Below are positions 10,421 through 29,145 of a DNA stretch of 64,000 nt, in pieces. This stretch comes from an uncultured Caldisericales bacterium. Lineage in GTDB: Bacteria; Caldisericota; Caldisericia; JAAYUI01. The DNA lies in contig CAZTGD010000001.1 in assembly GCA_964613055.1 (NCBI GenBank), positions 6,977 through 70,976 of the forward strand, in the 5' to 3' direction. Under the pieces are notes generated by a model. The model searched no databases. It worked only from the letters and a program-made list of their open reading frames with translations, and was not told where the DNA came from. The number at the start of each line of letters is the position of its first letter. Within the stretch, counting starts at the first letter, position 1. Both the position numbers and the translations under genes were made by a program.

Positions 10421-13400
10421 CTACTTCTCTGATGGATACACCACCTCAATAGCGCTCTCCTCTGCTATCCAGTTTACATCAGCACCCAGTGACTCACAGG
10501 CAAACCTGAGTGGGAGCATGGTGCGACCATTCACAATTGTTGGATAGAGGACAGTCTGACCATCGGCACCAATGATTGTCGTCTCTACACCATTTATCTT
10601 GGCAGTGGACACATTGTCCACCCAAAGCTGAAGGAACGTATTGCCCAGTGTGACGTCAACCCTTCTGTCAGCATCAATCCAATCAACCGTTGCGCCCAAC
10701 GCCTCAAACACAGCCCTGACTGGCATGTATGAGTTGCCAGCAAGCTCTGCAGGAAGAGGTGGTGACTTGGTTGTAGGCATGGGATCAAGATCATCCGCCT
10801 GTTTGTTATTGATGACAAACTTGGGCTCATTGACCCAGAGTTTGAGCCTTATGGTTTCAACAGTTTCAAACTTGATGTAGCTGTCGATGGTTGATTCATT
10901 CCCAAGCGTGTCAACTGCCTTGACAGTTACAGCGTTGAGGCCAGAGTTGAGTTCAATTTCAAAGCTGAAGTTGCCTTCCAGATCAACTGAAGCTTCTTGA
11001 CCATTTATGAAGACCTTTGCCATAGGTTCAGTCGTTCCTTCAAGCGTAACTGGTGATTGAGAGACGAGTTCTGGAATATCACACTCAATGGCTGGAGGCT
11101 GTGAATCAACGATGAGAGTAAATGGAGTAGGATCAGAAGTTTTTTCACTCATTGTCGAAGCAATGACAGTAACATTGTATTGACCGTCTCCTTCTACGGT
11201 AATCTCTAACTCAAAGGAACCCTCTTCGTCTGACTGGCAGTACCCAACTGGAACATTGTCTATGAGTGCAACAACGCTGTGATTGGGGGATGTTTTCCCT
11301 TTGAGTGTGTATGTGGTTGTTTGCGAACCGGCGAATCCGGGTTCAGGAAGATCGAGTTCAAGGGGGATCTTAGTGGCATCAATGATTACAGTCCTGTTGA
11401 GTTTAAAAACATTACCTGCCTTATCCTTGGAAACCATATTGATTGTGTATTCACCGTCTTCGAGATCCTTGAGTATCACGCTGAACTCACCATTGGCAGA
11501 TACTTCAATGGGTTCATCGTTCACCATCAGTCTCGCTCCACGTTCGGTAGCGCCCTGGAACTCAAATGGAAGGCTGACAATCTTTTGACCCTCCTTAATG
11601 GTTGTTCGGATTATAGGTCTTCTTGTGTCAAGGATTACAACCTTGATAACATCGGCGGCATTTCCATCAGCGTCTTCAGCGTGGAACTTCAGCTCATTGC
11701 GACCCTCGTCAATGGGTATCATATCGCTGAATGTGCCATCTGTTTTAACAGTAACGGGTCTACCGTTAACGCTGAGTGTTGCACCTGGAACGGTTGTACC
11801 CTCTACCTTGAAGCTGTCCTCATTTGTGATTGTGGTATCGTCAAGGTCTATGTCTAGTTTTATTGGGGGTTTTGCAACAACGTTCATTTCAATTGGTATC
11901 GAGAGATTGCCAACACTCGACTCGACATCAATTGATCCACTGTGCATTCCGGGTTCCATACCTTCAGCAGACAGTGTGACCTCGTATGTCTGTGAGAGGG
12001 TGACATACTCTGTTGAAGACAGTGATATCCAATCATCGCTTGGGGTTAGTGTTCCGTTTATCTCACCAGTGTCATTATAATAAACTCGAACGTTTCTCGT
12101 TTTGACTTCATCCGGGTAGATCTGGTTTATCCTGATTGTGGATGGATCTGAGTACAGTCCTACAACCTTTTCGCCATAGCATATGATCCTGTCACCACTG
12201 ACAAACACCTTATCGTTTGCGATCACGGGCATTGGCATAATCATCGACCCACCACCAAACGGCATTCCACCGGACATCATTGTATCATCAGTGAAAACTA
12301 TTTCACCATCTGTGATGTTGGCTATTGAGAATTTGGTTCCTCTTGTGCTGATAACCTTGTCCTTAGTACAGGCAAATTGCATACAAGTGAATGCCATGCC
12401 ACCGGGTGTTTCGTTCTTCCACACAAGAGAGCCTTTGTTCTTGCTGACGCATATTGTATGACTCATGGCGAGTTGGAGAACGATACCTCTTGGTGTGATG
12501 GCAGGTATACCATATAGGCAGAAATCAACAGTTCTTTCATTAGCGTAGTCAATGCTGGAGATATCAAACACCCAGATATCTTCTCCATTCTCAGCGTTGC
12601 ATGCCATGAGTTCGCTGGTGGGCATGACCATCCTTCTACCACCGATTTCACTCGGTACTTTCATTTTAGAGAAGTAGATTCTACCATCTGCATAGGAGAT
12701 TCCTCCTGCAATTTCGCTTTCATCAAGCTTCTTTTCCCATGCTATCTTTCCCTCCTCATCAAATGCAATAACGGCAGAATCATTAATCTCAGGCATTGGA
12801 TTATCAGGATTCATCTTGATCTTTGCTACAGATGTAAATATCTTCCCATCCCCGTATGTCAGCATCATCAGTGGCATCCTGTCTAGATCAGCACTCCAAA
12901 CCTCTGACTGGTTATTTGGATCCATACATACAAACCTGGTGTTACCAATTGTCCGATCCTCACCTATCTCAGTGTATGCAAGATAGATATACTCTTCGCC
13001 AACCAGCCCTCCTGATATTGTGGTGGGTTTTTTTATCACTTCTTTGAAGATCTCGGCTCCATTTTCAGGTGAAATCATACCAATAACAGAACTCACTTCT
13101 GTCTCTTCAGTGGTACTCATCGGGTGACCACCTCCTCCAGGACGACCGCCTCCATGACCTCCACCTCCTGATCCATCTTCTCCACCTCCAGCTTGCATGT
13201 AAGATGTACAGATGAATACGATCTTCCCATCAACATATCCAATTTGAGCTGAACCTATTTCTCCAACCTTATAGCTCCATAGCTCTCGACCATCAGATTG
13301 TTCTAAGCATACAATCACGCCCTGTGATGTGCCAAAAATTATCTTGTCATCGATTGCTATGTGTGATGCAATTGTTCCGTTCTCAGGATAGTATACCCAT

Positions 13401-15067: not shown

Positions 15068-17257
15068 ATGAGGTTATCATCTCTTGTTCTTGTTGTGACC
15101 GCTATTGTGACTACGTCTGTCGTGTCTTCATCATTAATTGCTGTTGACGATTACAGAAAAGCTCCCGCTCCACCTTTTTCTTTGACATCAAAAGTGGATA
15201 TTGAAGCTGGATATCTTTCAAAATATCCACCAGTCTCGTTTAGGGATGGGTATATTTTTGGTGACTCCAAAGGGAGACTGCAGTACATAGTTGGTGACAG
15301 TTGCTGGATGAGTGTCTCTGTTGATGGTTCAGATATCAAGTCAGCACCAATTCTGGATGGGGATATCGTATTAGTTGGTACAATGGCAGGTACGTTGGCA
15401 AGTATTCATATGCCATCTGGAGAGTTGCGATGGGCGTTCAAAGCGAAGAATGCAATTATTGGAAGACCTCTTGTAGCAGAGGATAATGTTTATTTTGGCA
15501 GTGCTGATGAGAGATTCTATTGCCTCAACTTAGAAGATGGTTCAAAAGTATTTGAATATCAAACCAATGCTCCGATATGGAGTACTCCTTGTGTTGTGGG
15601 TGATAGTGTGATTTTTGGGTGTGATGATGATTCAGTTTATTGTATCAACAGGTTTGATGGAGAGCTAATTTGGGTGTTCAAGTGCGATGGCTGGGTGGAG
15701 GCAGAACCTGTAGTTGATGATATTTTTATATACATAGGTACTTTGGGTGGGAGTGTGTATAAAATAGATATCTTAACAGGTGAATTGGAATGGAAAATAC
15801 AACTTAATGATGCAGTTCATTCAAAGGGTGTGCAGATAGATAACAGGTATTTTACCGCTGATGACTCGGGATCGATAACATGTTTGGATACTTTCAACGG
15901 AGAAATTATCTGGCAGAGAACAGACTACTCCGCAATTGATACGCCTTTAGAGACAAATGGGGAGTTGATCTATTTTACCGACGAAAACAAGAGGTTTGTT
16001 TGTTTGGATGTGTTTGGTGATCAACTCTGGAGAAGGAATATGATTCATGCGGTTCGGAGTGGTGTTTTGGTGGATGAGTACACTCTTGTTATGGTGAGTT
16101 CAGATGGATTTCTTGAATGTTGGGATGAATGTGGTTATGTAGAGGTTACACCAAAGAACCGTTATCTGGGAGAGGTTGCTGAGGAGGATGGTTTTTTTTC
16201 ATTCAGGATGGATATTGTATCAGGTAGAAAGGATGATCGAGCTTCCCAGGGGATGATCGATTATAGACCTTTTGAAGCGGGGAAAAGGTGCAAAGCAGTT
16301 CAATTCAAGGAGTTGGGAATATCCTATATCAAGAATTTGCGGGTATTCAGCTATGAAGGAAACATAGATCTTTCAGATCCGTCCTTCTGTGATGGATCGA
16401 ACGATTTCGTTGTATATTTTGGTATCGGTCAACCGTTAAGCGAGGGTGATGGGATTTACCAGTCTCCCAGCTCAGATGGAATGGTTCACACTCGGTTTAC
16501 CTTTGATTTGGTTAGTGACAGGTCAGATTGTCAGACATGCGAGCCATGTTATAAAGTCAGCATAACGCCCAATAATACACCCTATTTCAAACGAAATGAG
16601 TCTGGGAGTTTTGAGATACAAGTTTCGTCTGCAGACGATATCAACAGGGAGATAGAGATTAATATAGAGGGCATAAAGGGAATCGAAAGTGAGGAACTCA
16701 AACTGATGCAGGAAGATGGTTTAGTGTCTCACCAAATTGAGTTCGATTGCATGGATCTGCCTGGAGGTTCGTATTTTCAGATACCGATCAGTATATCGTG
16801 TGTGACCTGCCCCAGACCAAATGAGAAAATGAGGTCTGATTGGCATTCAAACAGAACGATCAGTTTCACAACAGACCCCAGGCTGAGGATAGATATGAAA
16901 CCTGATTCGGTGGATGTGTTGGTCAACGGTAATCCAGTAAGACTCGATGTGCCAGCCAGGATAGTTGATGGCAGAACTCTTGTGCCTATAAGATTTGTAG
17001 CCGAAACGTTTGGTTGTGATGTATCTTGGGAGCAGGAAACAAAGAAGGTAACTATAATTAAAGATGAAACTGTTCTCAATTACTGGGCGTATCAAAAGAG
17101 AGCCAGATTCAATGGACTTGATGTGGAAATCGATGTTGGTCCCATAATCGAAAGGGGACGAACACTCGTTCCCTTTCGCTCAGTTGCCGAATCACTTGGA
17201 GCTTATGTACGGTGGATAGCTACATCAAGAGATATAATAATTGATTGGGAGTTTTAG
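15068..17257 (+). CDS. Secreted PQQ-like beta-propeller repeat protein with two C-terminal copper-amine-oxidase-N-like (stalk) domains
   Basis: The table ORF (14945) starts inside the tRNA. ATG 15068 gives signal peptide MRLSSLVLVVTAIVTTSVVSS. Repeated propeller motifs (DG..W, YF.TADDSG). C-terminal RTLVPIRFVAETFGCDVSWE and RTLVPFRSVAESLGAYVRW. Confidence 0.7.
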   Translation: MRLSSLVLVVTAIVTTSVVSSSLIAVDDYRKAPAPPFSLTSKVDIEAGYLSKYPPVSFRDGYIFGDSKGRLQYIVGDSCWMSVSVDGSDIKSAPILDGDIVLVGTMAGTLASIHMPSGELRWAFKAKNAIIGRPLVAEDNVYFGSADERFYCLNLEDGSKVFEYQTNAPIWSTPCVVGDSVIFGCDDDSVYCINRFDGELIWVFKCDGWVEAEPVVDDIFIYIGTLGGSVYKIDILTGELEWKIQLNDAVHSKGVQIDNRYFTADDSGSITCLDTFNGEIIWQRTDYSAIDTPLETNGELIYFTDENKRFVCLDVFGDQLWRRNMIHAVRSGVLVDEYTLVMVSSDGFLECWDECGYVEVTPKNRYLGEVAEEDGFFSFRMDIVSGRKDDRASQGMIDYRPFEAGKRCKAVQFKELGISYIKNLRVFSYEGNIDLSDPSFCDGSNDFVVYFGIGQPLSEGDGIYQSPSSDGMVHTRFTFDLVSDRSDCQTCEPCYKVSITPNNTPYFKRNESGSFEIQVSSADDINREIEINIEGIKGIESEELKLMQEDGLVSHQIEFDCMDLPGGSYFQIPISISCVTCPRPNEKMRSDWHSNRTISFTTDPRLRIDMKPDSVDVLVNGNPVRLDVPARIVDGRTLVPIRFVAETFGCDVSWEQETKKVTIIKDETVLNYWAYQKRARFNGLDVEIDVGPIIERGRTLVPFRSVAESLGAYVRWIATSRDIIIDWEF

Positions 17258-21577: not shown

Positions 21578-21668
21578 GAGTGCACACAATCAATCTGAGG
21601 CAATTTCTATTCATTGTTTTCTCCTTTTGTCAAAACACCCAAGCTAAGAACCATCATTATCCAGATAA

Positions 21669-22256
21669 TCATTCTCTGTATATACTAATTAATAGCTTTC
21701 CAATTCTAGTTAGTGGTTGTCCGTATTTTCCACTTGCTATTATTCCTGAACCAAGCAATCTAGACATCATTGGGTCATTCAAATAATAATTCATATCATC
21801 ATTATTAATTATGAATTGGGCATTTGTCATTTTGTCTATTTTGACAATATCTTCATAAAAACATCTGTCTATTGCATACCCTACTTCAAAAAACTGATGT
21901 TCAGTAATCCTACCCATAATCAGATATTTAAAAGCTTTGCCAAGTAAGACTGCTTTTTCAACACAATCTAATCTATCAATTAATATCATCATTTTCTCAC
22001 AAATTTCTACTGATTTCCCACTATCCAACTTTTTAATATACAATTCTCGATCTTTTTGGGGAATTGTATCTGGATTACCCATGAATCCAATCCATTTCTT
22101 AAAAAATGCTCGTCTTAAACATTTTTCTACAAGTTCATAACCACTTGAAGCAATTGAACCAAGATAAGGGATCGCTGTCAATACTGTTTTTATACATTCT
22201 TTGACTATACAACTATCAGTTATTGGATTGTTCAGTCTATTATCAGATTCCTTCAT
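21669..22256 (-). CDS. Hypothetical 195-aa protein in the AT-rich island, co-oriented and 15 nt downstream of the Type IIG R-M gene
   Basis: Very AT-rich ORF with no recognisable motif. Lies immediately 3' of the R-M gene on the same strand, so co-transcription is likely. Confidence 0.5.
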   Translation of the reverse strand: MKESDNRLNNPITDSCIVKECIKTVLTAIPYLGSIASSGYELVEKCLRRAFFKKWIGFMGNPDTIPQKDRELYIKKLDSGKSVEICEKMMILIDRLDCVEKAVLLGKAFKYLIMGRITEHQFFEVGYAIDRCFYEDIVKIDKMTNAQFIINNDDMNYYLNDPMMSRLLGSGIIASGKYGQPLTRIGKLLISIYRE

Positions 22257-22271
22257 CTAAGCTCCTTATCC

Positions 22272-25200
22272 TTATTTATAAGGCAGTTTTGAAAGTTCAT
22301 TGACAAGCTTCACCGTTTCTAGTGAGACGGTTACCACCTTGCCAATGAGGTCAAATATATACCTTTCATTGCCGTCAAAGTTGTTTGGGTCTTGTTTTAT
22401 TCCTGACCTTTTATCTGTTTTGACCCTGTATTGGTCAACAATCCATTCTAAAGCAGAGCGGTTACCCAGCTTGTATTCATAGACTTCTGGTGGGATGCCT
22501 GCAAGTGTTATTGCTTTGTTGTAGACAAGTGATTTCTTATCCTTTGTAATTTTCATCTTGTCTACGGTGAACTTTACATCTGGGAATCTATCTTTATCAA
22601 TAACCTCTTCAAGCTCATATATGTCGGCGTTTTCATAGTCCAGGTGAATATCAGCGAGTCTTTTGCCAATCGAACTGAAGCTCCAGAAGTCTGGTGCAAA
22701 GGGTATTCTTGGTAATGATCCTTTCAGGTTCTTCTCATAGTCCTTGCGGTAATCCTTGTGGTGTAGCATTGCATAGATGTAGTAGAAGATGTCCCATTTG
22801 GTTATTTGCTCCGCTTCACAGGGAGGGTGGACAGGAGTATCATTTAAACCCCCCTGATTTGACTTCGTCAAATCTTCCCCCCTCGAAGAGGGGGGCTTAT
22901 TGTGTGCTTCGTCGGTTCCACTCGAAGAGGGGGGCTTAGTGTCTTTGTAGTGGTTGTGGAACAGTTTCAGGGTGTGGTCGGTAATGTTTTCACGTCTTCC
23001 TGTGCCGTCCTTGTTGTAGGTGTAGAAGGGGAAGCATTGTGAATCACCTGTAAAATGTAAATCAGGTATGGTCTTCGATATTAATGACTGGAATGGTTTC
23101 TTGTTTCCAACCGCTGTTGTGCATATCACCCTGTTCTCTTCCTCGGATGCGGATGTTGGAAAGAAACGATGTTGTTGGTATCTTCTTTGATTCAATAGAT
23201 GATCAAAATATAGATTCACTCGACAATAAGGTCTATAAATACTTTTTCTAAAACCGTTCTCTGATAACCTAATTTGAATATTTTTCTTGAGAGATTCTTT
23301 TAGTCTAACCGTCCACTTTATCTTGCTCTCATCATTTGATAAAATCTTTTCTAATTCAATATCACCAATTTGTCTGTGTGGTTGCTTCTCTAATTTTATT
23401 CTTTCAGTTTCATATGTTGAATAATGCAACATAAGATTTGTTTTTAATTCTTGTTGTGAGAAATTGTATACCCATATATCTCTACCTGTTGCAACTCCTC
23501 TTGAGTAAAGATTGAAGATGGTATCGCAGTCCGGTTTGCCCTTCTTGCGCTTGTCACCCATCAGGGGGTAATCCTCAAAGTCCTCCGCCATACCCTCAGT
23601 CAACCACAGGTGACGCTTGCTGGGTGTCAGTTTCTTCCAGTTGACTCCTTTTAAATCACCCGCCTTGTATACAATTTCAAACTTTTCAATCCTTGTAGAT
23701 CTGAAAGGTACGTCAAAGTACCAGATTCCCTTTTCTTTTGATGCTTTGTTCTTTATGAAGAATGAAATGGATATACCAACCATTGCTGACAGACCAAACA
23801 CTGTATGCTTTTCACCCAATGGTATACCATCTCTCATTGAGTCTTTCCGTATGTTACCCTTTAGATCCAACACATACAGCTTATCAAAATCCTTCTCCAG
23901 GTGCTTTCTCATCCCGTCAAAAGCGTATCCATCGATGAAGCTGTTGTTGGTGATCATGGCAATAACACCCTCATCACCGATTCTCTCTGATGCCCACTTG
24001 ATGGCTTTTACATATGGATCATAAATTGCATTCTTTTTTGTCGCTCTTGAGTCTTTCCCAAAGGTATTTCCGATAGCCTCCTCTAATTTGGGATATTTCC
24101 TGTTTTTATTATTATCCATCTCATTCTGCTGATTTGAGTTGTATGGAGGGTTACAAATGACAACAAAGATTGGTGATTCTGACTGTTTTATGACTCTCTG
24201 TGCGTTCTCATCATTGAAGTACAGACCACCGTGTTCTTCAAACATCTGAAAGGTGTCGGCAAAGCAGATGCCTGGGAAGGGCTCTCTTTCACCCATAGCA
24301 TCGTAGTATGCGTGCTCTATGTTGATGTTTGCTATGTAGTATGGCATCAGCTGTATCTCATTACAGTGAAGCTCCTCAAGGTATTTTTGTTTTAGTCTGG
24401 TAGGGTTAATCTTCTCTATCACGTTTACTATGAAGTTTCCTGTTCCCACAAAAGGATCAATAATGTGGACTTGTTCACTACCTAGACCCTGCTTCTTGTC
24501 AAACTCTGTCTTGAGTATCTCGTCTACTGACCTGACCATGAAGTTAACCACAGGTTGTGGTGTGTAGACTATTCCAAGTCTGTCTGCTGATTTTATTGCC
24601 CAGCCTTGAAAGAAACGCTCAAAGATATCGTTTAGGAAGACCTGTTTTGCTTTGAAATCCTCCAGCTTATATGCCGCTTTCACTATCTGATCGTAGAAAT
24701 GGTCAAGAGAGCCTAAGAACTCTGTTTTGTTGAAGTAACCTTTGGTCATTGAATCGATTACGCTTTCAATGTTCTTTGCTATTATGTTTCGACTTGTAAA
24801 GCTCTTAAGGTCAAATATGCTCTCCAGTATCCTCTCCGTAAGCAGGTGCTGTACAATCATCTCTTTGATTGCGACACGGCTCACATTGGGATTGATTGAT
24901 TTTGTGCAAAGTTTATAGAACTCATCAAATCTTTTTATGAAAAGCTCGTTTGTTTGTTGTGATTCCTCAATCTTTTCAAGCAGACCCTTGGCGAGTATTG
25001 GCATACGTTCATCAAAGGTGTCAATAGCCTCTTCCCATGTTTTCCTGTCAAAATGTTCATAGTTGAAGAACTTTTCAAGTACCTTGATGAAACTCTCTGG
25101 GTTGTCTGCTATATCTTCATCATAGACCTTTTTCTTTCGCTGTATTAGAACAGCACGCTTTGGTTGCCAGAAGAGTATATTGAAATCTGGATAGTCTTTT

Positions 25201-25559
25201 GTGAGAATCTTTTTTTCTATCTCTTCATCCAGGTCATCATCGTCATCCTTTGATTCCATATACCCCATGGGGAGAATGCCTACTTTTGATTCTAGAAAAC
25301 TGCCATCAGGGATGTTGCCGTTTGGTAGAGATTTCTTCGGTTCAAAGTTCCATTCAACTTGCTTTGAACAGTATGAAAGTAGGTTTAGGAAGATTGGCTC
25401 TACTACACCTTCAGATGGATTGTTGTTTGTACGAGTCTGAAAATATATCTCATACTGCCTCTTCATATCCCTGTAGTACTGCTCAATGGGTTTGTCAGAA
25501 GGTTTTAGGCTGAGTTTGCTCTGTTCATTCATACAACCACTCCCATTTATAGTTTTCAA
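22272..25559 (-). CDS. Type IIG (MmeI-like) restriction-modification enzyme: N-terminal PD-ExK-like nuclease + gamma-class N6-adenine DNA methyltransferase + target-recognition/C-terminal domain (alternative: BREX PglX-like MTase)
   Basis: Candidate nuclease motif IPDGSF...VGILPMGYMESK (PD...ExK), resembling the D..ExK catalytic motif recalled from MmeI (not verifiable here). MTase motif I IIDPFVGTGNFIVNV. Motif IV VVICNPPYNS. C-terminal FYYIYAMLHHKDYRKDYEKNLKGSLPRIPF matches the MmeI/PglX-type C-domain. No BREX partner genes nearby. Confidence 0.65.
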   Translation of the reverse strand: MKTINGSGCMNEQSKLSLKPSDKPIEQYYRDMKRQYEIYFQTRTNNNPSEGVVEPIFLNLLSYCSKQVEWNFEPKKSLPNGNIPDGSFLESKVGILPMGYMESKDDDDDLDEEIEKKILTKDYPDFNILFWQPKRAVLIQRKKKVYDEDIADNPESFIKVLEKFFNYEHFDRKTWEEAIDTFDERMPILAKGLLEKIEESQQTNELFIKRFDEFYKLCTKSINPNVSRVAIKEMIVQHLLTERILESIFDLKSFTSRNIIAKNIESVIDSMTKGYFNKTEFLGSLDHFYDQIVKAAYKLEDFKAKQVFLNDIFERFFQGWAIKSADRLGIVYTPQPVVNFMVRSVDEILKTEFDKKQGLGSEQVHIIDPFVGTGNFIVNVIEKINPTRLKQKYLEELHCNEIQLMPYYIANINIEHAYYDAMGEREPFPGICFADTFQMFEEHGGLYFNDENAQRVIKQSESPIFVVICNPPYNSNQQNEMDNNKNRKYPKLEEAIGNTFGKDSRATKKNAIYDPYVKAIKWASERIGDEGVIAMITNNSFIDGYAFDGMRKHLEKDFDKLYVLDLKGNIRKDSMRDGIPLGEKHTVFGLSAMVGISISFFIKNKASKEKGIWYFDVPFRSTRIEKFEIVYKAGDLKGVNWKKLTPSKRHLWLTEGMAEDFEDYPLMGDKRKKGKPDCDTIFNLYSRGVATGRDIWVYNFSQQELKTNLMLHYSTYETERIKLEKQPHRQIGDIELEKILSNDESKIKWTVRLKESLKKNIQIRLSENGFRKSIYRPYCRVNLYFDHLLNQRRYQQHRFFPTSASEEENRVICTTAVGNKKPFQSLISKTIPDLHFTGDSQCFPFYTYNKDGTGRRENITDHTLKLFHNHYKDTKPPSSSGTDEAHNKPPSSRGEDLTKSNQGGLNDTPVHPPCEAEQITKWDIFYYIYAMLHHKDYRKDYEKNLKGSLPRIPFAPDFWSFSSIGKRLADIHLDYENADIYELEEVIDKDRFPDVKFTVDKMKITKDKKSLVYNKAITLAGIPPEVYEYKLGNRSALEWIVDQYRVKTDKRSGIKQDPNNFDGNERYIFDLIGKVVTVSLETVKLVNELSKLPYK
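22842..22934. repeat. GC-rich structured in-frame insertion inside the R-M gene: 17-bp direct repeat (CTCGAAGAGGGGGGCTT x2), four C6/G6 homopolymer tracts, nested hairpins
   Basis: CCCCCC-TGATTTGAC-TTC-GTCAAATC-TTCCCCCC-TCGAAGA-GGGGGG ... TCGAAGA-GGGGGG. Much higher GC than the surrounding roughly 30% GC gene. Encodes the Pro/Ser/Gly linker KPPSSSGTDEAHNKPPSSRGEDLTKSNQGG. Confidence 0.5.
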
Positions 25560-25629
25560 ACCTGTTATCCATTACAACTGCCCATTATATAGCCACAAAT
25601 AATACCAATCAAATCTCTACTCTTTCATC

Positions 25630-25647
25630 GTATACCAAAGGGTATAC
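25630..25647. promoter_or_regulatory. Operator-like palindrome GTATACC-AAAG-GGTATAC in the R-M gene promoter region
   Basis: 7-bp inverted arms, 70 nt upstream of the R-M start codon (25559). Shares arms with the second palindrome 56 bp away. Confidence 0.35.
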
Positions 25648-25685
25648 ACAATATAACAGTTTGTAATACATTCCTTTTATATTAT

Positions 25686-25703
25686 GTATACCCATGGGTA
25701 TAC
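25686..25703. promoter_or_regulatory. Perfect 18-bp palindrome GTATACCCATGGGTATAC between the wHTH gene stop and the R-M gene start
   Basis: Perfect dyad with the same GTATACC arms as 25630-25647. A candidate dimeric regulator binding site. Confidence 0.35.
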
Positions 25704-25732
25704 TGTAATAGGGATGATGAATTACATAGTTA

Positions 25733-26257
25733 CTATCTGTGATTGATGATATTAGAGATGTCATAGGTGTTTGCTATTCCCGTTCTTCCTTTTCTGCTGT
25801 GTATACCCTTTGTGATTATTAGATTGTATTCACTTTCAAGTGACTTAATTGCTTTGTTGGGTCCTGCTTTTGAATAGGTTCCTCTGGTACTGGGTTGAAG
25901 GTTCATGAATTCACAGATCTGTTCAAGACTTAGGAAACAGCTTGTATTGTTGAATTGATGGCAGACTGAAAGGATGATACGAAGGATCTTGTGTTTGTAC
26001 TTATCACCTTTGATATTAAAGTATGAGGTGTTTATCTTTGGTCTGTGACATATTGATTGGATGCTGTTGTAAACATTGGTTAGGTATTGGTATCTGTAGT
26101 TAGAAAGCTCTGAAAAGTGACCAGGCTGATACTTGTCAAATACGTCTTTTATATCATCCAGTGAGTAACCACAGGTATCAAGACGGGTCATAACCGCGGC
26201 TTCTGCCTCTGATCTTGATGGATATGATTTGAAGGTGCTTAGAGTCTTTATATCCAA
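25733..26257 (-). CDS. Winged-HTH protein, possibly a truncated or non-canonically initiated replication-initiator/regulator-like gene of the island
   Basis: C-terminal wHTH-like segment LSLEQICEFMNLQPSTRGTYSKAGPNKAIKSLESEYNLI. The table ORF starts with TTG. The same frame stays open upstream to a TAG at about 26629-26631 (roughly 125 more codons, including a CSGCG motif) with no ATG, GTG or TTG in between. Confidence 0.4.
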   Translation of the reverse strand: MDIKTLSTFKSYPSRSEAEAAVMTRLDTCGYSLDDIKDVFDKYQPGHFSELSNYRYQYLTNVYNSIQSICHRPKINTSYFNIKGDKYKHKILRIILSVCHQFNNTSCFLSLEQICEFMNLQPSTRGTYSKAGPNKAIKSLESEYNLIITKGIHSRKGRTGIANTYDISNIINHR

Positions 26258-26658
26258 AGGGATTCCTTTTATAGCTGTTTTCAGGTTTTCAAGTGCTGTG
26301 TATACCCAAGGCTCTGGTTTGAGTTTTAAATACCGAGGGAGTACAAGTGATGTGTTTGATGATGTTGAAGTGCTGGGATTAACAAGGTCAGATATGTCTG
26401 ACCAATTTATCTCAGGTGGATTTATAAACCCGTTGTACCAGTCGTTGTTCCAGTAATATTCAAAGCTTCCAACTTCTGAGTTTGGTACAAGAGAATAGCA
26501 GTTTCTGATACGTGCCTCTCCCTTACCAACATCTGGTCTCCAATTGGTTACGGTTATGTCAGCGGGTTTTGTTAAGTTGTCAAGTCCACAGCCGGAACAT
26601 TGCGGCTCATCCTCGATGAGTTGAAATCTCTAGCATTCGTATTATCATCTAGCACTAA

Positions 26659-29145
26659 GTGCGACACTTTTTAGACACGCCGTTACTAATACGCTTCACG
26701 GGGTGCTTGCTGTTGGTATGCGCAGTAGGTATTGTGAGTGTTATTGGTGTATTGATACCTAGTAATAGTGCAGAAGCTGTAAATATTACCGATTATTACT
26801 ATTCTGACTTTAAACCCGTCAAGATTGTTGAAAATGATCATATCCAGAATATGCCATCCATTCATGGTAATTATATATCCTGGCTCGATTCAAGGTTAAA
26901 CGATAAGGCAGGTAGGATATTTCCGCGCAACTACATGATGGACATAAGAACGAGAGAAGAGAGGGTTGCAAACTCCTTTGCCAGGAAATCAGGTGCGATG
27001 ACTCAGTACAGGAACAAGATAGTATGGGCTGAAAATACTGACAGATTAAGGGAGAACAACTTCGATATTAAGTGCTACGATTTTAAAAGTGACGAAATTT
27101 CAACCGTGTGTAGCAACAAAACTATGCAATCGAATCCTCAGATATCTGATGATTACATTATATGGAATGATATGAGAGACTCCGATGTTGGTTCTGATGA
27201 TCCATCACAATTTGCTATTTATGGTATCCCCACAGAAGGAGGTGATGAGTTTCTTATAAAGGATCATGAAACACCTGGTATTGCAGAGTTGTTTGGTGAT
27301 TATATTATTTTATCAAAAGAAAATGAGGATAGAGGAGATTATGATGTATACCTTTTAATTCCGTCAAGTTCAAAAAGTATACCCATATGTACAGCTAAAG
27401 GAGACCAGTTTAACCCAGCAATAATCAACGATAATTTCGTAGTCTGGGAGGATACTCGAAATGCTCCTGAATTCGGTTTCGACAGACCTGGGGATATCTA
27501 TGGTTATTCGATAAATAATCACAAAGAGATTTTTATATCCATTGATAAAGCCAGAGACTATGGTTTGGTTGTGGGAGAGGAGCGGTACTGCCTTTGGTTC
27601 AGAGAGTCTGGTGATTCTATTGGTGGTTTGGCAAACACAATTCACGGTTATGATACCTTTGCTCAAAAGGAGTTTACAATTTGCGATAAACCAAGCGACA
27701 ATAGAAAGGCGGTTGTTGGAGAGGATTGGATTGTATGGGAAGTGCATACTCATACAGAATTTGGTTCTGACCTGATGGCATACCATATTGAATCAGATAA
27801 AATCTATACCTTATGTAAATCATATGGCGATCAAATGAATCCAAGCATTTATAGGAACCGAGTTGTTTGGGAAAATCACAGCAATTCCAATACAGAAGAA
27901 GTAAGCATCTGGTATGCAGATCTTGACATTCTAGCAAGTAATAAATCACTCAACCAGCAATGGGGGTTTTCTCACCGACCCATTTGGAGTCAATGTCGAG
28001 CAGATGATACTAATAGCGGTATGGGTTTTGCTGAGATTAGGGATCTTGATAGATTTAAAATGAATCAACAATGGAAGACAAAGCTTAATGGTTCAATCAC
28101 ATCTTCAGCATGTTTCGACAGAAGCTGTTTTGCATACTTAGGGACCTCACAGGGAAAGGATGGTTATTTCTACAAAATATCAGCCTATACGGGTGAAATA
28201 ATCTGGGAAAAAGCTGTAGAAGGAGGTGTTAGATCCTCTCCGGCTATATACAATAACCGCGCTTTCTTCGGTACCTCTTCCGGTAAGTTTTATTGCCTCG
28301 AAACCGATTATGGTCAAGAAGTTTGGAGTATACAACTTGATGATGCCATTGACACCTCGCCAACGATTTTTATCAGCGAGGTGGATCATTACCCCATGGT
28401 CATATTCAGCTCTAACAATAAATCATTGTATATGTATAGTGTTAGAGGAAACAAACCAAACAAGCAATGGGAAATTATGCTGGATGGATGGGTAAAAGGA
28501 ACAGTTGCAATCGATTATAATAGATTCTTCAGAGTATCAAGAAGAGAACCAGTAAAAAAGTATATTTATGCTGGATTGTCCAGCAACAGGATTGTGTGTA
28601 TTGATCCGGCAACAGCACAAATAGTCGCATCCTTTCCAACGGACTCTTCAATTAAAACCCCCCCAATCGCAATAGGACCTACTTGTATCGGTACTTCTGG
28701 TGAAGGCACGCTGTATTGTTTTGATTTCTGTGGATTGGGAAGGTCTCCAGAGCTTCACATTGAGGAAAAAACATATCACAGATCAATGTCCTCTCCAGTC
28801 TATGATCGAATCAACCAGATCCTATGTTTTGAAAGCAGTTCAGACTCAATATCATTTATAAATGGGAATAAAAAGTGGACGACTACCATCAGTAAAACTC
28901 TATCTGCTTCACCTTCTCTGTCGATTTCTACACGCAATGATGGTTCATATATGATTATTTCATCGTTTGATGGAAGTCTGTTTATTTTTAACACTGTAAA
29001 TGGTGAAATTCTTTGGAACAAGTCGCTTGAAGCCAGGGTAACGAGTTCACCAAGCATACTGGATACCGGATTTGTCTCGATAATTATAGGTTCAAATGAT
29101 TCTTATCTGTATTGCTGGGGCCAGAGACCCATCTATTCAGATTAA
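26659..29145 (+). CDS. Secreted beta-propeller repeat protein (N-terminal xxVWxDxR-type blades, C-terminal PQQ-like repeats)
   Basis: GTG start. Signal-peptide-like MRHF...LLLVCAVGIVSVIGVLIPSNSAEA. Repeated blade motifs YISWLDSRLND, IVWAENTDRL, YIIWNDMRDSD, FVVWEDTRNAPEF, WIVWEVHTHTEFGSD and RVVWENHSN. C-terminal PQQ-like GGVRSSPAIYNNRAFFGTSSGKFYCLETDYGQEVW. Confidence 0.65.
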   Translation: MRHFLDTPLLIRFTGCLLLVCAVGIVSVIGVLIPSNSAEAVNITDYYYSDFKPVKIVENDHIQNMPSIHGNYISWLDSRLNDKAGRIFPRNYMMDIRTREERVANSFARKSGAMTQYRNKIVWAENTDRLRENNFDIKCYDFKSDEISTVCSNKTMQSNPQISDDYIIWNDMRDSDVGSDDPSQFAIYGIPTEGGDEFLIKDHETPGIAELFGDYIILSKENEDRGDYDVYLLIPSSSKSIPICTAKGDQFNPAIINDNFVVWEDTRNAPEFGFDRPGDIYGYSINNHKEIFISIDKARDYGLVVGEERYCLWFRESGDSIGGLANTIHGYDTFAQKEFTICDKPSDNRKAVVGEDWIVWEVHTHTEFGSDLMAYHIESDKIYTLCKSYGDQMNPSIYRNRVVWENHSNSNTEEVSIWYADLDILASNKSLNQQWGFSHRPIWSQCRADDTNSGMGFAEIRDLDRFKMNQQWKTKLNGSITSSACFDRSCFAYLGTSQGKDGYFYKISAYTGEIIWEKAVEGGVRSSPAIYNNRAFFGTSSGKFYCLETDYGQEVWSIQLDDAIDTSPTIFISEVDHYPMVIFSSNNKSLYMYSVRGNKPNKQWEIMLDGWVKGTVAIDYNRFFRVSRREPVKKYIYAGLSSNRIVCIDPATAQIVASFPTDSSIKTPPIAIGPTCIGTSGEGTLYCFDFCGLGRSPELHIEEKTYHRSMSSPVYDRINQILCFESSSDSISFINGNKKWTTTISKTLSASPSLSISTRNDGSYMIISSFDGSLFIFNTVNGEILWNKSLEARVTSSPSILDTGFVSIIIGSNDSYLYCWGQRPIYSD

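Follow-up and report, generated by a model that had tools for sequence, protein, structure and literature searches.

A 5'-truncated Prim-Pol replication-initiator gene with an origin-like inverted repeat beside a Type IIL restriction-modification gene in a Caldisericales bacterium

We analyzed an open reading frame (ORF) without a canonical start codon, which is located upstream of a restriction-modification (R-M) gene in a stretch of 64,000 nucleotides (hereafter the window) from an uncultured Caldisericales bacterium (GenBank assembly GCA_964613055.1, contig CAZTGD010000001.1). By its alignment to intact homologues, this ORF is the 5'-truncated replication-initiator gene of a former mobile element and is termed rep' here. 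The ancestral gene belonged to the Prim-Pol family of initiators (archaeo-eukaryotic primases, AEP), of which the window copy is a fragment. Comparison with related genomes shows the locus to be a fragment of about 5 kb of a plasmid-like element, inserted between two host genes. The origin of the locus, which is a real feature, is therefore largely explained by an integrated plasmid fragment with a truncated Prim-Pol Rep gene, an origin-like inverted repeat (dyad) and a Type IIL R-M gene. For its present state we lean, by a little more than even chance, towards a plasmid fragment in which rep' is still translated from a non-canonical start codon and in which the dyad is a Rep-binding origin.

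Truncated replication-initiator gene at the edge of an inserted island

The frame is open on the minus strand from 26629 to 25736, which corresponds to 298 sense codons, and it is closed by a TAG at 25735-25733. ATG, GTG and TTG are all missing from its first 124 codons. A codon of this kind first appears with the TTG at 26257 (codon 125), followed by the first ATG at 26191 (codon 147). The initial annotation had described this open extension correctly but had placed the upstream stop at about 26629. The TAG is located at 26632-26630, and the same frame has a TAA three codons and a TGA four codons upstream of it.

The homologue search covered 5.8 billion proteins and revealed full-length relatives of 356-392 amino acids (aa). 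The rep' product shows 63% identity to P0001, 60% to P0002, 55% to P0004 and 41% to P0005, and in all cases the alignment begins only at about residue 75 of the homologue. The N-terminal 74 residues of the homologues have no match anywhere in the window (tblastn). The window copy keeps the 3' four-fifths of the gene; the cut, at about codon 75, coincides exactly with the right edge of the island. Since the homologues align from this residue on and the break is the junction of island and host DNA, the start-less extension is what remains of the middle of a larger gene, which lost its 5' quarter on integration. A 5'-truncated replication initiator had been among the possibilities raised in the initial annotation, and the comparison bears it out, as the upstream codons do belong to an intact larger gene elsewhere.

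The junction was located with the island-free relatives L028 and L029, which show the gene order HypA-MatE-(about 90 bp)-beta-propeller-bL21 and encode beta-propeller orthologues with 74% and 55% identity to that of the window. In comparison with L028, host homology resumes at 26620 with GTTGAAAT, and island sequence begins at 26619. The left edge lies within 21578-21668. Codons 1-4 of the frame (RFQL, 26629-26620) and the upstream TAG are host DNA from the -35 region of the beta-propeller gene promoter, the -35 hexamer of which supplies 'codons' 2-3. Neither direct repeats nor att sites were found at the flanks of the island, and no integrase was found within it.

Three other origins of the start-less frame were considered and rejected. 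Read-through of the TAG or an alternative genetic code is ruled out by the TAA and TGA above it and by the host promoter located there. A displacement of the missing N-terminus by inversion or insertion within the window is ruled out by the tblastn result. A frameshift could join the frame only to ATG-initiated ORFs of 13 and 12 codons, which lie in other frames and within or next to host DNA.

The full-length relatives are classified by several lines of evidence. The Pfam domain Prim-Pol (PF09250) was detected above threshold in P0001, P0005, P0006 and P0007 at residues ~7-140, and the family profile matches the prim/pol domain of ORF904 from plasmid pRN1 (1RNI/3M1M) with an E-value of ~1e-6. 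The AlphaFold model of full-length P0001 (predicted local distance difference test score, pLDDT, of 89) matches 3M1M, which comprises the prim/pol domain and the helix bundle of pRN1, with E = 1e-8 over 324 columns (Foldseek); NrS-1, RepB' and CAPP are found further down the list. The family architecture consists of Prim-Pol, a short disordered linker, an alpha-helical domain with the invariant sequence SRSEAEAA and a C-terminal winged helix. In the AlphaFold 2 (AF2) model of the window product, residues 1-100 are poorly modelled and residues 100-298 are confident (pLDDT >90). Block means of the winged helix-turn-helix range from ~70 to 97, with residues 278-283 below 50, and this domain shows only weak matches to winged helices, namely TFE, SlyA/MarR, the ORC winged helix and RepE54. 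The rep' fragment alone has no Pfam match.

In metagenomes the family is represented by 702 cluster representatives at E <= 1e-30, and no homologue was found in PLSDB or in the phage collection. In the distant relative L025 (4564-5061 and 5001-5678), and likewise in L026 and L027, the Prim-Pol part (165 aa) and the helix-bundle/winged-helix part (225 aa; P0022) are encoded separately. The two ORFs share 61 nt in different frames. This arrangement recurs in three independent samples and could be either a split gene or a programmed frameshift.

The window copy has lost the catalytic motifs of the family. Motif I (hhhDhD/E; VVDLESD in P0001, VELESD in P0020) lies in the region of residues 1-74, which is absent. 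Motif II (sxH) reads SRRGxHHF in the homologues, and the window has CSGCGLDN together with a four-codon deletion. Codons 5-24 share 30-50% identity with the homologues, compared to 50-70% among the homologues themselves, whereas residues 25-298 resemble the intact homologues no less than these resemble one another. The sequence GKGEARIRNCYSLVPNSE is kept in rep'; it belongs to the second half of the AEP fold, where G35, G37, E38, R40, P49 and S51 are nearly invariant in the family. From the alignment, E38 would be the acidic residue of motif III. As motif I is absent and motif II is lost, the rep' product cannot prime DNA synthesis. The coordinates of all features are given in Table 1.

Table 1. 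Features of the island and its host flank in the window.
Feature	Position	Strand	Basis and remarks
Inserted island of ~5 kb (orf195, Type IIL R-M gene, dyad, truncated rep)	~21578-26619	-	Between host MatE and beta-propeller genes
orf195, 195 aa	21669-22256	-	ORF; 15 nt past R-M stop; 32% GC; absent from L001 element
Intact single-chain Type IIL (DrdV/MmeI-like) R-M gene, 1086 aa from ATG 25532	22272-25532	-	PDB, Pfam, PADLOC
Sigma-70-like R-M promoter, TTGATT-17-TATAAT	25584-25612	-	Consensus match only (10/12); begins 17 bp past dyad
74-bp dyad	25630-25703	.	Order from the side away from rep: outer palindrome 25630-47, inner arm 25648-59, AT-rich centre 25660-73, inner arm 25674-85, outer palindrome 25686-703
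rep' (5'-truncated Prim-Pol / helix-bundle / winged-helix replication initiator), including stop	25733-26629	-	Translation, homologue alignment
C-terminal winged helix-turn-helix, residues ~206-298	25736-26014	-	AF2, H-E-H-H-E-E topology
Helical domain, residues ~100-205, with invariant SRSEAEAA; probable counterpart of pRN1 helix-bundle / PriCT-1	26015-26332	-	AF2 pLDDT >90; 3M1M alignment of homologue model
TTG codon 125, start in some gene callers (174 aa)	26257-26259	-	Others: ATG 26191-26189 (152 aa)
Candidate rep' start: AAGGGAGAGG (26524-26515), 5 nt, in-frame ATC codon 41 (26509-26507)	26507-26524	-	Anti-Shine-Dalgarno pairing
Degenerate motif II remnant, codons 5-24	26558-26617	-	Alignment; CSGCGLDN for SRRGxHHF; in-frame deletions of 1 and 4 codons
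Host promoter-like site of beta-propeller gene, TTGAAA-16-TATCAT	26621-26648	+	Consensus scan; TTGAAA-16-TAATAT in island-free L028

Translation and constraint of rep'

Gene callers disagree on the rep' product and predict 174, 152 or 175 aa. The pairing with the anti-Shine-Dalgarno sequence was compared between all 298 codon positions, among which ATC41 has the strongest value (-8.4 kcal/mol). The ATG of the R-M gene reaches -6.9 kcal/mol, and TTG125 and ATG147 reach -5.6 kcal/mol each. The most likely start of rep' would be ATC41 behind a GGGAG Shine-Dalgarno sequence. A similar situation was found in the intact homologues L001 (9915-9928), L004 (1925-1939), L007 (7686-7700) and L020 (414-428), where an ATC or ATA is located exactly 6 nt past AGGAG(G), with pairing energies of -8.7 to -12.9 kcal/mol. 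This codon heads the conserved peptide I(D/N)(K/R)..L.K.YD.LGL. The TTG, ATG or GTG starts chosen by gene callers in these genes are scattered and have weak Shine-Dalgarno sequences, and the rep gene of L001 contains no canonical start before the conserved N-terminus. The intact Rep family probably starts at AUC or AUA. Bacterial ribosomes have been described as able to use AUU and AUA triplets as starts (PMC5499595).

The test for selection on rep' uses one divergent strain (contig L030, from another sample), which shares the identical junction; all other contigs are nearly identical to the window. L030 differs from the window at 25 of 1167 positions (97.9% identity). One synonymous and four non-synonymous nucleotide changes, the latter in three codons, fall in codons 1-24, all of them within the degenerate codons 5-24. 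Codons 25-298 show 12 synonymous changes and one non-synonymous change (neutral P ~1e-7 to 1e-6 for kappa 1-4). For codons 25-124, all located before the TTG, the numbers are six and zero (neutral P ~1e-4 to 4e-4 for the same range of kappa). The host gene next to rep' also diverges by about 2% in L030, which indicates that the copies have diverged at this site since the truncation. The excess of synonymous changes in codons 25-124 suggests that the start-less extension is translated, from a non-canonical codon. This had been offered as an alternative in the initial annotation and gains support from the six synonymous changes together with the best Shine-Dalgarno pairing at ATC41. From this one strain comparison we infer that rep' is a working, constrained gene and not a decaying pseudogene.

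The opposite case would be a rep' pseudogene that is not expressed and has so far remained free of stop codons, next to a dyad that is a relic of an origin, with the R-M gene as the one part that counts for the host. In our opinion, this case is unlikely. It would agree with the missing canonical start, the missing recognisable promoter and the lost catalytic motifs, as well as with the disagreement of the gene callers and the degenerate state of the ~20 codons beside the break. However, the indels near the break are in frame, residues 25-298 match intact homologues as well as those match each other, and the ratios of 12 to 1 and, before the TTG, of 6 to 0 in the junction-sharing strain would be very unlikely under neutrality.

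Further differences of L030 concern the end of the gene and the sequence behind it. The rep' stop is changed from TAG to CAG, by which one codon is added, and 3 of the 25 differences are located in the 29 bp that separate the rep' stop from the dyad (noted at 25719-25726 of the window), numbers that are too small to test.

Inverted repeat downstream of rep and the plasmid-like backbone

Between rep' and the R-M gene, two palindromes had been noted in the initial annotation, GTATACCAAAGGGTATAC at 25630-25647 and GTATACCCATGGGTATAC at 25686-25703. Both are exact as described there, 18 bp long, of the type GTATACC-N4-GGTATAC and 56 bp apart. The 18-mer pattern has just these two matches in the window even if two mismatches are allowed, with 0.12 expected. 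They do not form two separate sites but the outer ends of a single inverted repeat, whose 30-nt arms (25630-25659 and 25674-25703) are 87% complementary and separated by 14 nt. The dyad holds four GTATAC(C) half-sites around an AT-rich centre and folds as single-stranded DNA at -17.9 kcal/mol (z = -5.8).

In every close relative, a dyad is located directly 3' of the rep stop, whatever gene comes next. The dyad of L001 has 25-nt arms with 88% complementarity and the palindromes GTATACCAAGGGTATAC and GTATACCTTTGGTATAT, and that of L004 has 20-nt arms with 90% complementarity. The site behind rep consists of GTATACCAAAAGGTATAC and a half-site in L007 and L020 and of three copies of the related sequence GTACACGTAATACTAA in L002. 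The window, L001 and L004 share the identical 17-mer GGTATACATAATATAAA. The dyad at the rep 3' end is thus conserved in five lineages, and the palindromes are not absent from related loci, a case for which the initial annotation would have abandoned their role as binding sites. The distant homologues (500-aa form; L005-L013 and L018) share no common downstream repeat and are silent on the dyad. The mismatches of the arms are uncompensated, and in none of the relatives is the hairpin followed by a U-tract. Binding sites for a protein account for both observations better than an RNA hairpin or a terminator would. As the dyad is conserved regardless of the cargo, it belongs to the rep module.

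The palindromes were also considered as members of a genome-wide operator set, which was rejected. GGTATAC is 6-fold enriched compared to dinucleotide shuffles, but this is explained by a general over-representation of GTATAC, the fifth most over-represented hexamer in the window (60 on both strands versus ~32-36 expected). Single GGTATAC copies therefore carry no weight, including two inside the ORF (in the KGIHS and PWVYT codons). The sequence GGTATACC occurs at 12504, 23821 and 33843 of the window.

The gene order of the intact relatives, as read from their contigs, shows a plasmid-like backbone of parA-parB-(small gene)-rep-dyad with variable defence cargo downstream. In L001, a resolvase is followed further along by ParA (with HTH_17), ParB, Abi_2, a 250-aa protein, a small ORF and rep, and then by a 1084-aa R-M homologue. 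L002 encodes ParA, ParB and rep, followed by a PhdYeFM antitoxin and type I-E cas genes, and L004 and L007 carry other cargo of unknown kind past rep. No par genes were found in the window, neither in the ORF list nor by search. The small gene that precedes rep in L001 and L004 may be a repressor gene. Pfam gave no match for the small ORFs upstream of rep in the relatives, and a ribbon-helix-helix protein stays a guess.

Two further sites were observed in the backbone of the relatives. A 17-bp palindrome, GTGGACAC-N-GTGTCCAC, is located directly 5' of the rep Shine-Dalgarno sequence and after a conserved terminator-like hairpin. It is found in L001 (9886-9902), L007 (7663-7679) and L020 (391-407), in degenerate form in L004 (1897-1915) and as TTGAC-CAT-GTCAA in L002 (2581-2593). 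This palindrome is probably the rep operator; the region is missing from the window. The parA genes, which encode an N-terminal HTH_17, lie behind TTGACA-17-TATGGT (L001 5593-5643; L007 5289-5328; L002 ~560-600). An inverted repeat, CCATGGTAT..ATACCATGG, overlaps the -10 hexamer and the ATG, which follows the -10 by just ~10 nt, so that the parA transcript looks autoregulated and nearly without leader.

By analogy with known replicons, the dyad is probably the ancestral Rep-binding origin and not a C-box of the R-M system, and the winged-helix module, already the candidate in the initial annotation, is the most plausible ligand of the palindromes. We consider it rather improbable that the dyad is another cis element of the backbone, that is, a parS site for ParB or for the HTH-containing ParA, or a 3' hairpin which ends or stabilises the rep transcript. 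Such a role would suit the ParA(HTH_17)-ParB pair encoded just upstream in intact relatives, the occurrence of the GTATACC motif in the inverted repeat of the parA promoter and the strong single-strand folding of the dyad. Yet the window, where par genes are missing, shows no change from L030 in the 54 bp of the dyad covered by that contig, although this argument is weak (P of zero changes ~0.3). Moreover, L002 retains GTATACC at parA while its repeats behind rep read GTACACG, the missing U-tracts and uncompensated mismatches speak against a hairpin, and the origins of pRN1 and ColE2-type replicons are located at exactly this position (PMC4234260, PMC5304414).

A different division of the ORF was also weighed. 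The real gene could encode just a short winged-helix protein (starting at TTG 26257, with 174 aa, or at ATG 26191, with 152 aa), which acts like a controller on the R-M gene via the palindromes, with the upstream 124 codons as an untranslated leader. TTG125 and ATG147 each have a moderate Shine-Dalgarno sequence, the confident fold begins at about residue 100, separate PriCT-winged-helix ORFs exist in L025-L027, and the dyad is located 17 bp upstream of the R-M -35 hexamer, with a similar arrangement in L001. Nevertheless, we regard a short controller protein as very doubtful. All six strain differences before the TTG are synonymous, and a start at this codon would remove the helix 107-117 of the folded domain. 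The controller-like arrangement had been proposed in the initial annotation and is not supported by the locus: the dyad is downstream of the supposed regulator gene and is kept with cargo other than R-M genes, no features of C proteins are present (a small protein with an Xre-type helix-turn-helix, a C-box upstream of its own gene), and Type IIL enzymes like the one encoded here are single-chain.

The slightly favoured reading, a plasmid fragment with a translated rep' and an origin-like dyad, can be described as follows. Of the plasmid-like element, the chromosome has kept no more than the last four-fifths of rep together with the dyad and the cargo (the Type IIL R-M gene and orf195). Rep' has lost the ability to prime and retains the helix-bundle and winged-helix domains. 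It would be translated from ATC41, the same kind of start (AGGAGG-N6-ATC/ATA) that intact members appear to use. The dyad would be recognised as an origin by the helix-bundle and winged-helix module, as in pRN1 and ColE2-type replicons, and the catalytically dead Rep' would still bind to it. The two best guesses for the use of this binding are tuning of the R-M promoter 17 bp away, or blocking or titrating of related incoming plasmids by a dominant-negative Rep'. Regulation of the R-M gene is possible in view of the short distance between the dyad and the -35 hexamer. Exclusion of related plasmids could result from Rep' acting together with the chromosomal copy of the putative origin.

Several points weigh against this. 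ATC starts are rare in bacteria. No convincing rep' promoter was found in a consensus scan, and the upstream DNA is the antisense of the 5' end of a host gene. Two of the six synonymous changes (codons 33 and 38) are located upstream of ATC41, and one of them weakens its Shine-Dalgarno sequence. The test for selection depends on one divergent strain, in which 17 codons are changed, and a pattern like that of purifying selection could also arise by gene conversion from an intact plasmid in the same cell. In the AF2 model, residues 25-100 form no folded unit, which gives no reason for a constraint on them. The window product has no significant Foldseek match, and neither the family members nor the window product match Pfam PriCT_1/2. 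Binding of the dyad by Rep or Rep', as well as its role as origin, is inferred by analogy.

A more far-reaching proposal is put forward tentatively, as we hold it to be possible but clearly short of probable. It states that a captured dead Rep fragment, started at AUC, has been kept by selection as a plasmid-exclusion factor or R-M regulator, and that the whole intact family uses conserved AUC/AUA starts behind strong Shine-Dalgarno sequences to keep the initiator low. The start-less ORF would then become a concrete case of exaptation, in which a plasmid initiator is kept as a DNA-binding module in a chromosomal defence islet. The locus moreover leads to a bacterial family of Prim-Pol / helix-bundle / winged-helix Rep proteins that is fairly widespread and has yet to be characterised. 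For this family we propose a candidate origin, the layout parA-parB-rep-ori-cargo and apparently conserved non-AUG starts, which are systematically missed by gene callers. If this is true, annotation pipelines mis-call both the intact rep genes and the remnant. The dyad and Rep could serve as a new minimal replicon for poorly tractable bacteria.

Neighbouring genes and comparison with known systems

The gene downstream of the dyad encodes, according to its matches, a Type IIL enzyme that combines nuclease, gamma-class N6-adenine methyltransferase and specificity regions in one chain. The protein matches PDB 7LO5 (DrdV) with E = 7e-175 over residues 67-866, and also LlaGI and LlaBIII. Pfam identified ISP_coupler, N6_Mtase and Type_ISP_C, and PADLOC classified it as REase_MTase_IIG. 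It is colinear with the L001 homologue at 54% identity, and the motifs PD..E(S/A)K, DPFVGTGNF and NPPY are conserved. An analogous promoter-like sequence, TAGACA-17-TATCAT, is located just past the dyad in L001 (consensus match only). No intrinsic terminator was found between rep' and the R-M gene. The product of orf195, for which Pfam, NCBIfam and PADLOC gave no match, may assist the R-M enzyme as an accessory protein.

Within the R-M gene, a 25-nt direct repeat (92% identical; window 22879-22942, minus strand) encodes a duplicated KPPSS(S/R)G. It is located in the specificity region, within a low-complexity insert that aligns only weakly and with gaps to the L001 enzyme. In L001, the final ~80 nt of the R-M gene occur once more 2 kb downstream of it (16443-16525; 76% identical to window 22354-22272), which may be a remnant of a specificity-domain exchange.

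On the host side of the junction, the earliest possible start of the beta-propeller gene is the GTG at 26659, about 10 nt past the -10 hexamer (TATCAT, 26643-26648), which would result in an mRNA nearly without leader. Gene callers start this gene 25 codons further in, and L028 has an ATG four codons past the equivalent GTG.

The minimal replicon of pRN1 consists of a repressor, a Prim-Pol Rep and a stem-loop downstream of orf904, which is needed for replication (PMC4234260). The family described here resembles this plasmid of Sulfolobus islandicus (orf56 repressor, ORF904) in the match to the prim/pol and helix-bundle structure, in the long inverted repeat directly 3' of rep and, if the small gene ahead of rep in L001 and L004 is a repressor gene, in this gene as well. 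In contrast to pRN1, it is bacterial, lacks an SF3 helicase domain, ends with a winged helix and has parA-parB in its backbone. Its dyad, with arms of ~20-30 nt and four short half-sites, also differs from the 100-nt stem-loop of pRN1, and the window copy lacks the catalytic half of the protein.

In the ColE2 and RepA-PFP replicons, whose Rep proteins consist of primase, PriCT and HTH domains, the origin lies within the 3' end of rep or directly behind it, and that of ColE2 also determines incompatibility (PMC5304414). The ColE2 Rep melts origin DNA with its PriCT-1 and HTH domains, and the layout of primase, PriCT-type and HTH domains has been described for ColE2, RepE/RepS and related primases of mobile genetic elements (PMC5862659). 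Like ColE2-P9 Rep and the RepA-PFP class C theta replicons, our family appears to combine a primase, a putative alpha-helical PriCT-type domain and an HTH, without a helicase, with the dyad at the equivalent place past rep. No sequence similarity to these replicons is detectable (no PLSDB match, no Pfam PriCT match). The ColE2 origin is an asymmetric site of ~32 bp bound by a monomer, in contrast to the 74-bp dyad found here.

An N-terminally truncated, in-frame RepR' of plasmid pIGRK, which still binds DNA, acts at the origin or operator as a negative regulator and inhibits replication (PMC6854812). Rep' is similar in that the N-terminal part is missing and the DNA-binding domains, here predicted, are kept. 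Judged by this analogy, negative regulation in the manner of RepR' would be the likeliest use of a dead Rep'. RepR' arises from an internal start of an intact plasmid gene, whereas rep' is chromosomal and its full-length form is gone. The short pi forms of R6K are other truncated Rep variants that inhibit replication.

With the C proteins of R-M systems, the locus shares paired palindromes between two neighbouring genes of one strand, of which the upstream one encodes a DNA-binding protein and the downstream one the restriction enzyme. C proteins are Xre-type HTH proteins of ~80-100 aa that bind C-boxes upstream of their own gene. In contrast, rep' encodes a fragment of a Rep protein, which has no Xre/HTH_3-type match and is homologous throughout to Prim-Pol Reps. 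The dyad differs from a C-box by its location downstream of the gene and is kept beside PhdYeFM/cas cargo (L002), cargo of unknown kind (L004, L007) and R-M cargo (window, L001). C proteins are not known to occur with the Type IIL class. The R-M enzyme itself is similar to DrdV and MmeI, with nuclease, methyltransferase and specificity regions in one chain, and differs from them by the additional 195-aa ORF that follows its gene.

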